In this document: positions 4,160-5,083 of the stretch, in pieces | Layout of the letters: every line of letters starts with the position of its first letter | How positions within the stretch are numbered: position 1 is the stretch's first letter | IMG/VR virus record: IMGVR_UViG_2681813228_000014 | Length of the DNA stretch: 11,623 bases | Origin: a virus | Lineage: Duplodnaviria > Heunggongvirae > Uroviricota > Caudoviricetes | Reading direction: 5' to 3' (one strand) | Translations under genes and position numbers: made by a program | Notes under the pieces: model-generated | The model's input: the letters and a program-made list of their open reading frames with translations, nothing else | The model's database searches: none | What the model was told of the DNA's origin: nothing

Positions 4160-4370
4160 TGGGTGCCCCCCTTACTTCTCCGTCCTGTTCTTTAACAAAA
4201 ATCAAGTCAATACAAAATTAGTCAAGCTAATGTTGTTAGCATATCCTAATACCAATCGTATTCACAACCACAGTACGTGAAAAAAAACCGCCGAAGTAGG
4301 TTAAGTGCGGGTGCGTTGAGGATGCCTGACACATCAGAGGTGGCGGGGGATTTCGCCCCCGCCGGGTCTC

Positions 4371-4526
4371 TTACTCCTCAGGTTCGTAGGCTACGAAGAC
4401 AGCAACCTCCGTCTGGCCGGTTCGGATTCGTACCTCGCAGAGGTCTTTCCTCGTTACCAGTGCCGTCACTATGACGGTTAAACAGATGACGATCAGGGCG
4501 ATTAACATCGCCTTTTGCTGCTTCAT
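4371..4526 (-). CDS. hok: Hok/Gef-family type I toxin (HokD/RelF-like, 51 aa)
   Basis: MKQQKAMLIALIVICLTVIVTALVTRKDLCEVRIRTGQTEVAVFVAYEPEE: single transmembrane helix and the conserved C-terminal RKDLCEV...TEVAVF...YE core of Hok proteins. Confidence 0.85.
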   Translation of the reverse strand: MKQQKAMLIALIVICLTVIVTALVTRKDLCEVRIRTGQTEVAVFVAYEPEE

Positions 4527-4583
4527 AGCCTGCTTCTCCTTGCCTTTCGGCACGTAAGAGGCTAACCTACATGTGCAAAGCAT
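4371..4583 (-). CDS. mok: Mok-like overlapping frame (in-frame N-terminal extension of hok, 70 aa)
   Basis: ORF from ATG at 4583 continues in frame through hok, as in the mokC/hokC arrangement. Confidence 0.55.
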   Translation of the reverse strand: MLCTCRLASYVPKGKEKQAMKQQKAMLIALIVICLTVIVTALVTRKDLCEVRIRTGQTEVAVFVAYEPEE

Positions 4584-4610
4584 GAAATTGGCCTCAGATT
4601 AATGTTAAGC
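4540..4610 (+). ncRNA. sok: Expected position of a Sok-like antisense RNA (approximate)
   Basis: Inferred only from hok/sok architecture, in which the antisense RNA overlaps the mok start region. No promoter or terminator was confidently identified. Confidence 0.2.
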
Positions 4611-5083
4611 GTCTTGCCGGACGCGTAATGTTAACTGGGGCTTTTCTCTATCTGCCTTTTGGTGTTCATGCCTGAGGCAGATAGCCTCAAGCACCCGCAG
4701 CAATTCTAACTATCCAATAGATCAATGCCAACTTCTTTTCCTGCAACATCTCTCATCATAAGTGACCCAAATTCATCCAATCAGCACAAAAGAAACATTT
4801 AAAGCGTGAATGCTACCGAACGTTCATTTCAATTACATCGTTTTGATTTTTAACAGTTTTCACCTCAACAAATCAAATGGCATTAGCATTCATCATGGAA
4901 GAAAGACTGATAAAAATGATCATTTTCAATGACTTATGATCACACCGGGTATTGCCAAGTCATTCCTTTTACGCCAGGATACCCACAAGTGAGTAGTCGA
5001 GGAGAGTTTGCCAATTTTTGCGATATAAATTTCAATGTCCGAAGAACCATTAATTGTTAATTGATTCTGTATAAGGTATTAAC

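Follow-up and report, generated by a model that had tools for sequence, protein, structure and literature searches.

Within an 11,623-nucleotide stretch of viral DNA (Caudoviricetes; IMG/VR record IMGVR_UViG_2681813228_000014), referred to below as the window, the minus strand from about position 4731 to 4280 almost certainly carries a complete hok/mok/sok type I toxin-antitoxin module of the hokD/hokW subfamily, which would operate by the standard circuit. The locus is an ordinary, complete copy of a hok/sok module that is common in lambdoid prophages of Escherichia coli, and it is thus already known rather than new; hok/sok has been a textbook system since the 1980s. A preliminary description, prepared from the sequence alone, had interpreted the region as a hok/mok type I locus embedded in a prophage. 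Our analysis supports this interpretation through a match to the Pfam family HOK_GEF, a match to the Rfam family RF01794, and an RNA fold that is conserved among homologous loci. The features of the locus are collected in Table 1.

Table 1. Features of the hok/mok/sok locus in the window (positions are those of the window; strand as given)
Feature	Position	Strand	Basis
Putative hok/mok promoter: -35 TTGGCA (starts 4731), 17-nt spacer, -10 TAGAAT (ends 4703)	4703..4731	-	Promoter scan
Putative full-length mok-hok mRNA, ~417 nt	4280..4696	-	Ends inferred from promoter, Rfam start, and U-run
tac element GGGUGCUUGAGG, 5' partner of the long-range closure	4685..4696	-	MFE fold, alignment
Metastable 5' hairpin of the nascent transcript: tac and the sequence just downstream	4664..4696	-	Fold
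Stem of ucb/anti-SD GCCCCAG (4641-4635) and CUGAGGC (4598-4592) at the mok SD, around the Sok-target hairpin	4592..4641	-	RNAalifold
mok frame, 70 aa, in frame with hok, shared stop	4371..4583 (ATG at 4583)	-	ORF list; mokW/hokW layout in 933W
hok toxin gene, 51 aa, MKQQKAMLIALIVICLTVIVTALVTRKDLCEVRIRTGQTEVAVFVAYEPEE	4526..4371	-	Pfam PF01848, PHROG 251, HokD identity
GUAAGAG box overlapping the hok stop, pairing with CUCUUAC (4558-4552) upstream of the hok SD	4365..4371	-	RNAalifold
8-bp perfect GC hairpin GGCGGGGG-CGAAAU-CCCCCGCC, just 3' of the hok stop	4342..4363	-	Fold, alignment
fbi element CCUCAA-C-GCACCC, 3' partner of tac	~4309..4321	-	MFE fold, alignment
3' end: weak hairpin CCUAC UUCG GCGGU, then U8 (4287-4280)	4280..4303	-	Fold
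Putative Sok promoter: -35 TTGCCT (4540-4545), 17-nt spacer, -10 TAACCT (4563-4568)	4540..4568	+	Identity to 933W
Putative Sok RNA, ~71 nt	~4575..4645	+	Coordinates transferred from the sokW misc_RNA, AF125520

Results

The protein encoded by the hok frame covers the Pfam HOK_GEF profile from end to end (positions 1 to 42 of 42; 81.2 bits against a cut-off of 22; E = 3.9e-23) and matches PHROG 251, "MokW-like host killing" (6e-33). It shares 50 of its 51 residues with HokD of E. coli K-12, the sole substitution being T45V, which bears out the near-exact match to HokD/RelF noted for it in the preliminary description, and it is the same protein as RefSeq HokD WP_000813257.1 of E. coli O121 RM8352. 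Two NCBIfam Hok HMMs, the NF007279 subfamily model and the NF007290 HokA equivalog, stayed under their curated cut-offs (49.8 versus 73 and 41.4 versus 89, respectively). Since RefSeq still names the identical protein HokD, this shortfall does not bear on membership in the wider Hok family; those models represent other Hok subgroups. The Mok-type extension that the preliminary description had placed in frame with hok was found as well, starting at ATG 4583 and preceded by an SD sequence, GAGG, at 4596-4593 on the minus strand. Phage 933W has its mokW and hokW annotated in this in-frame layout as well. No PADLOC model matches Hok or the products of the two genes that follow it, a 59-amino-acid ORF and Doc.

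The leader of this transcript is recognized by the Rfam model RF01794, which aligned over its full length (model positions 1 to 157) with positions 4696..4521 on the hok-sense strand at 119.8 bits, compared with a gathering score of 59. Neither a missing Rfam match nor a broken hok frame, the two outcomes that the preliminary description had set against its own reading, was encountered. Despite its name, "sok," the model matches the hok-sense leader (176 nt), with the true antisense strand scoring 14.7 bits, and the match therefore demonstrates the hok leader and not a Sok gene as such. In a permissive Rfam scan, that 14.7-bit plus-strand "sok" match, an isrK-like match on the hok 3' UTR (22.3 bits versus 50), and a match to a nematode snoRNA were all below threshold and were set aside as chance.

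In a generic scan, the only sigma-70-like site between positions 3900 and 5100, with 10 of 12 matches, lies just upstream of this leader. It predicts a transcription start about 7 nt downstream, near 4696, and the RF01794 alignment opens at that very base (GGGUGCUUGAGG). The -10 element is kept in 933W, E. coli 10_253, and Rac-SA53, and we infer that the segment functions as the hok/mok promoter. A transcript from this start into the U-run (folded from 4696 to 4281) has a predicted minimum of -168.8 kcal/mol, far below that of shuffled sequences (-126.6 +/- 5.4 kcal/mol; z = -7.9), in a fold that is closed from 5' to 3' end: tac (4696-4685) pairs with fbi (~4321-4309), a closure that is the defining trait of hok mRNAs (PMC9841398). 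When only the first 37 nt were folded, they formed a hairpin of -19.8 kcal/mol (z = -4.4) that none of 200 shuffles equaled, corresponding to the metastable 5' hairpin described for R1 hok (PMC9841398). The stem between ucb and the mok SD was also present in single-sequence folds. For the 111-nt leader, the MFE structure instead contained a stem of the tac/ucb type (GGG-U-GCUU with AAGCCCC) that left the mok SD free. In a 375-nt RNA truncated at its 3' end, the mok SD remained paired in the MFE structure, and the open form was not reproduced; refolding after 3' processing is thus plausible in these models, yet it is not predicted unambiguously.

The preliminary description had expected a Sok-like RNA around the mok start and left it unplaced. 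Aligning the window with the sokW annotation of 933W now gives a position by homology, about 4575 to 4645 on the plus strand. The stretch taken as its promoter is identical in all four aligned copies, that of phage 933W among them, and its -10, TAACCT, is the hexamer that was mutated with primers YO-421/422 in the "promoter-less" sokW, with loss of antitoxin activity (PMC8621323). Our generic promoter scan did not report this site, since TAACCT matches at only three of six bases. The putative RNA is predicted to fold with about 9 unpaired nt at its 5' end, followed by a long hairpin and the 3' end GGGGCUUUU (-30.2 kcal/mol; z = -4.7), and it is complementary to both the mok SD (4596-4593) and the start codon (4583-4581). 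At the level of sequence, then, Sok has the properties of a cis-encoded antisense RNA with its own promoter over the mok initiation region.

To compare this architecture across relatives, we gathered 46 hok loci from contigs representing one genome per species and took putative full-length mRNAs from those with enough flanking sequence and a recognizable 5' motif. The resulting alignment holds 32 distinct sequences from Escherichia, Shigella, Kluyvera, Citrobacter, Pantoea, and Photorhabdus. We specified the helices to be scored (tac/fbi, the 5' hairpin, the Sok-target hairpin, and the GC hairpin), and controls were made by sliding the partners by one to three columns. RNAduplex was also used at 35 loci to obtain whole-duplex energies between the two end regions, 5' and 3', but long spurious duplexes made the z-scores uninformative, and we therefore relied on pair counts from the alignment. 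Among the 32 homologues, 90.3% of the cells in the specified helices were standard pairs, against 42 to 50% in the slid controls, and both sides had changed at 13 pairs, against 3 to 4 in the controls.

Unguided RNAalifold prediction recovered tac/fbi, the ucb/mok-SD stem, a CUCUUAC/GUAAGAG helix, the sequestration of the hok start, and the GC hairpin. At one tac/fbi position (columns 4/407), the pair was U-A in 18 sequences, U-G in 2, and C-G in 11, so that a compensatory change from U-A to C-G is seen in 11 of the 32. The ucb/mok-SD stem (columns 56-61 with 101-107) likewise switches between A-U (22 sequences) and G-C (10 sequences) at pair 61/101. The CUCUUAC/GUAAGAG helix (columns 141-147 with 328-334) kept all 7 pairs in all 32 sequences with a single one-sided change, to one G-U pair; its pairing is conserved but without covariation. 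The tac/fbi closure, the ucb/mok-SD stem, and the GC hairpin are thus conserved across six genera, with compensatory changes in the first two. The elements of sequence and structure and their conservation were shown in this analysis, and most of the helices covary.

The 8-bp GC hairpin lies exactly where the preliminary description had drawn it, at 4363..4342. Taken alone, its stability is modest (-18.9 kcal/mol; z = -2.3; 6 of 200 shuffles fold equally well). In the 32 homologues, however, 97 to 98% of its cells are paired, its apical pair being A-U in 24 and G-C in 5, and the hairpin is kept from Escherichia to Photorhabdus. By analogy with R1 hok, for which mutations in a 3' stem-loop have been reported (PMC9841398), it is likely to act as an exonuclease barrier or a stabilizer. 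Because RNAalifold recovers these structures and tac/fbi covaries across genera, the structured 3' UTR is real and belongs to the architecture of the hok family.

The extreme 3' end is less typical. The U8 tract is present, as had been noted, but at 4280-4287 instead of 4281-4288, and the hairpin preceding it (-4.8 kcal/mol) is no better than shuffled sequences; a generic terminator scan called no terminator-like site at the hok 3' end. The copy in E. coli 10_253 has CCCGC UUCG GCGGG at this position (-12 kcal/mol), in line with the common allele, which carries a 5- to 6-bp GC stem. Three substitutions separate the weak-stem allele from the common one, and it is rare, occurring in 32 of 4,402 matching records. 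The folded hok-type 3' end proposed for this RNA is consequently borne out by fbi and the GC hairpin and is not clear as regards the terminator, and in this allele the full-length mRNA may depart from the paradigm in where it ends and in how stable it is.

The locus is best explained as an accessory gene that a Rac-like lambdoid prophage carries in its nin region, the host being an STEC O121-like E. coli. Its neighbors include recE, kilR, ydaT/U/V, and nin-region genes, and the whole window is 99.9 to 100% identical to a Rac-like prophage of STEC O121:H19, with five differences from RM8352. Of 5,426 complete E. coli genomes, 4,726 contain DNA resembling the locus, at a median of two places each, as do 79 phage records; related records annotate it as hokD, as hokW/mokW/sokW, or as "host killer protein," and a recent survey found hok to be enriched in prophages. 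In each of the eight complete O121:H19 genomes that hold the whole window, a 1,258-bp IS3 element interrupts the hok leader and has duplicated its target, GCT (4561-4563). The insertion point separates the start codon of mok from that of hok, and likewise the -35 from the -10 element of Sok. This disruption in the nearest complete genomes indicates that the hok locus is dispensable. The window carries the uninterrupted allele, without an IS, and strain ERL03-1416 likewise has an uninterrupted cassette of hok, the 59-amino-acid ORF, and Doc that is 98.9% identical.

Discussion

The window locus may be understood through the R1 hok/sok paradigm (PMC9841398) and the hokW-sokW system, from which we borrow the following mechanism. 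A constitutive promoter at 4731-4703 would give rise to an mRNA of about 417 nt, the 5' end of which would be held in the metastable hairpin while the transcript is nascent. In the finished mRNA, tac would pair with fbi, ucb would sequester the mok SD, and the hok start region would also be paired, yielding a closed full-length molecule that would be stable, untranslatable, and unbound by Sok. Slow trimming from the 3' end would then remove fbi and allow the leader to refold, with tac pairing to ucb, so that the mok SD and the target of Sok become accessible. The unstable Sok RNA would pair across the mok SD and start codon, blocking mok translation and leading to cleavage of the duplex; as translation of hok would depend on that of mok, this block would stop the synthesis of Hok too. 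If the supply of Sok ended, be it through loss of the element, a shut-off of transcription, or prophage induction, Hok would be made, insert into the inner membrane, and kill or lyse the cell. By analogy, then, the window locus would be transcribed, processed, and toxic in this manner, with a biological role in prophage retention and/or in helping lysis upon induction.

The closest characterized relative is hokW-mokW-sokW of Stx2 phage 933W and Sakai prophage Sp5 (AF125520), another lambdoid prophage locus, which has the same architecture and gene order, with Mok in frame in both. The DNA of the 933W locus is 94.5% identical over 88% of the query. The Sok promoter stretch, the Sok hairpin, and the 3' end of the RNA are identical to those of sokW, and positions 4521-4575 and 4592-4646 agree base for base; between them, at the 5' end of Sok and the start of mok, seven substitutions fall within the 16 bases 4576-4591. 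HokW is identical to the window protein through residue 45, Val45 included, whereas the C termini differ (AYEPEE in the window and DYESEK in HokW). The two loci also differ in the -35 region of the hok promoter, in the sequence after fbi, and in the genes downstream, a YgiW-like gene in 933W and the 59-amino-acid ORF and Doc in the window. For hokW-sokW, both the toxin and an RNA antitoxin with its own promoter have been demonstrated experimentally, and on prophage induction sokW is lost and HokW is made, locates to the inner membrane, and raises phage release two-fold (PMC8621323). By analogy, these properties would carry over to the window allele.

K-12 hokD (relF), in the cryptic prophage Qin, is homologous only to positions 4282-4540 (96.1%), a segment that includes the hok SD and coding sequence, the GC hairpin, fbi, and the terminator region. 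It lacks the hok promoter, tac, ucb, the Sok target, the mok start, and the -10 and gene of Sok, having relB-relE in their place. Its fbi is retained even though the tac partner is lost, and no tac motif was found upstream of a K-12-type copy in our collection (L009). The window, with its full leader, has no relBE, as the preliminary description had observed, and does not match the relBE-hokD (relBEF) arrangement of K-12. It is therefore hokD-type by gene family and a complete, hokW-like form by layout.

The likeness to hok/sok (parB) of plasmid R1 lies in the RNA, where the window has counterparts of tac/fbi, the ucb/mok-SD stem, the metastable 5' hairpin, the GC hairpin after the stop, and a Sok antisense to the mok initiation region. 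The R1 system resides on a plasmid rather than a prophage, its mok is out of frame with hok instead of in frame, and the 3'-terminal hairpin is weak in the window allele. At the protein level, the relationship is distant only, HokW and R1 Hok being 44% identical (PMC8621323). The IS3 insertions in the O121:H19 copies, from which the window is free, are the same kind of inactivation as in the K-12 loci hokA, hokC, and hokE, which Pedersen and Gerdes reportedly recognized in 1999 as chromosomal hok loci inactivated by IS elements.

The insertions also bear on whether the locus still works. It could be hok/sok by descent, with recognizable parts, and yet be decaying or silent and provide no effective killing or addiction. 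The change of the terminator stem from CCCGC/GCGGG to CCUAC/GCGGU, with stability no greater than that of shuffles and no terminator called, the rarity of this allele, the split leader in the closest complete genomes, and the loss of the whole leader from K-12 hokD all point in this direction, as do post-segregational killing assays, cited in a bioRxiv survey, in which chromosomal hokA, hokB, and hokC were reported inactive. In the window itself, however, every coding and regulatory element is intact, the ORF has neither a frameshift nor a stop, and the leader around the mok and hok starts is that of the functional hokW-sokW outside the 16-base segment at the 5' end of Sok. The cassette is uninterrupted in ERL03-1416 as well, and the U8 tract, which is longer than that of the common allele, could partly compensate for the weak stem. 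We regard decay as unlikely.

The remaining alternatives concern what the sequence elements are. If the GC hairpin and the U8 tract were simply the terminator of a small gene, they would say nothing specific about hok, and a GC-rich hairpin and a U-run are indeed generic ingredients, the former with only the modest z-score given above. But the two lie 54 nt apart (4363-4342 and 4287-4280), no U-run follows the hairpin, which led us to reject it as a terminator, the intervening fbi pairs and covaries with the extreme 5' end, and the hairpin itself persists over the phylogenetic range already described; this explanation is very improbable. A 65-amino-acid ORF on the plus strand (4277-4474) also appears in the mechanical ORF list, and were it the real gene, the Hok frame would be a chance antisense ORF. 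We rejected it in favor of the Hok frame, which has the strong Pfam match and 98% identity to HokD and is the annotated coding sequence in every related record, leaving the plus-strand reading practically no credence. The complete hok/mok/sok module thus remains our reading of the locus.

Given the degraded hairpin before the U8 tract, and since we found no consensus promoter between hok and the next genes, transcripts could in part read through into the co-oriented 59-amino-acid ORF and Doc (4159-3476), and the differences at the Sok 5' end (seven of the 16 bases 4576-4591 relative to sokW) might shield this copy from Sok RNAs made by the genome's other hok copies; together, these traits could let the cassette of hok, the 59-amino-acid ORF, and Doc behave as one mobile addiction or defense unit. 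We offer this as a speculation that is rather improbable. If true, such read-through would create a composite type I/type II toxin-antitoxin unit, the mirror image of relB-relE-hokD in K-12.

Beyond correct annotation, the significance of the locus is small, as thousands of genomes already carry annotations of the prophage hokD/hokW form, on which experimental work exists too. The window copy nevertheless shows the locus in its complete form, and K-12 hokD is what remains of it after truncation. Genome annotation usually omits Sok, which can be placed here by homology, and users of Rfam RF01794 may bear in mind that the model matches the hok-sense leader. Finally, the sister alleles disrupted by IS3 and the variant with a weak terminator constitute small natural experiments on the decay of hok loci.

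Interruption of the hok leader

In all eight complete STEC O121:H19 genomes that contain the entire window, an IS3 element of 1,258 bp lies inside the leader of hok, the toxin gene of the hok/mok/sok type I module, where it has duplicated the target GCT (window 4561-4563). The insertion site is flanked by the start codons of mok and of hok and also splits the putative promoter of the antisense RNA Sok between its -35 and -10 elements, and the insertion cuts hok off from its own promoter. The window itself represents the uninterrupted allele.

The UACG motif and neighboring genes

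Within the hok coding sequence, the codon for Tyr47 falls in a UACG motif (window 4388-4385, minus strand) whose stem covaries across hok mRNA homologues, columns 309-311 of their alignment pairing with columns 321-323 (CG 16 times and UA 14 times; GC 21 times and AU 9 times). TadA-mediated A-to-I editing has been reported to recode Tyr to Cys in the hokB, hokC, hokD, and hokE mRNAs, and the sequence context reported for that editing is the same as that of the Tyr47 motif in the window.

The downstream Doc/Fic toxin gene matches TIGR01550 at 124.7 bits, while the 59-aa open reading frame accompanying it belongs to PHROG 2208 (unknown function) and has no Pfam match; together, they look like a type II toxin-antitoxin pair. 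The 120-bp gap separating them from the hok region showed no consensus promoter, and the cassette of hok, the 59-aa frame, and Doc recurs in strain ERL03-1416 with other genes upstream. On the other side, the Beta-protein family and sce7726-family genes, which in E. coli 10_253 and Rac-SA53 likewise adjoin hok, are possibly an anti-phage defense pair beside the toxin-antitoxin modules. Elsewhere, the prophage carries a small-RNA cluster (window 181-581 and 1356-1554), with matches exceeding the Rfam gathering scores.

Features of the hok region and the surrounding prophage (window coordinates unless stated)
Feature	Position	Strand	Remarks
3-bp stem and 9-nt loop holding UACG	4379-4393	-	Tyr47 region of hok
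59-aa ORF and Doc/Fic toxin	3476-4159	-	directly 3' of hok, same strand
IS3 copy	L005 (NZ_CP028110.1) 6066-7323		at site matching window 4561-4563
Beta-protein family gene	5084-6181	+	Pfam PF14350; PADLOC PD-Lambda-2_C, E = 1.8e-41; divergent from hok
sce7726-family gene	6141-6719	-	NF033832; overlaps Beta-protein family gene, convergent with it
Orphan DNA methyltransferase, type II-like	7042-7515	-	PADLOC MTase_II, E = 1.5e-71; prophage early region
AgvB	181-242	+	Rfam
STnc100	435-243	-	Rfam
isrK	1541-1465	-	Rfam
C4 antisense RNA	1439-1356	-	Rfam
a1/b1 target of C4 antisense RNA	1554-1502	-	Rfam
Partial tRNA	581-522	-	Rfam; tRNA-Met in RM8352 annotation

Sok and its divergence

At window 4521-4696, the hok-sense strand matches Rfam RF01794 ("sok antitoxin (CssrC)") at 119.8 bits, versus only 14.7 bits for the antisense strand. 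Since the score is high only in the hok sense, what the model represents is the leader of the hok mRNA, not Sok RNA, and the strand on which it matches should not be taken for that of Sok. Among otherwise near-identical hokD/hokW copies, differences cluster in the Sok 5' end and the first mok codons (window 4576-4591; alignment A1, columns 162-176), where 7 of 16 positions differ from phage 933W, the remainder of Sok and its promoter being identical. Such differences at the Sok 5' end may restrict cross-talk among the several hok copies of one genome.
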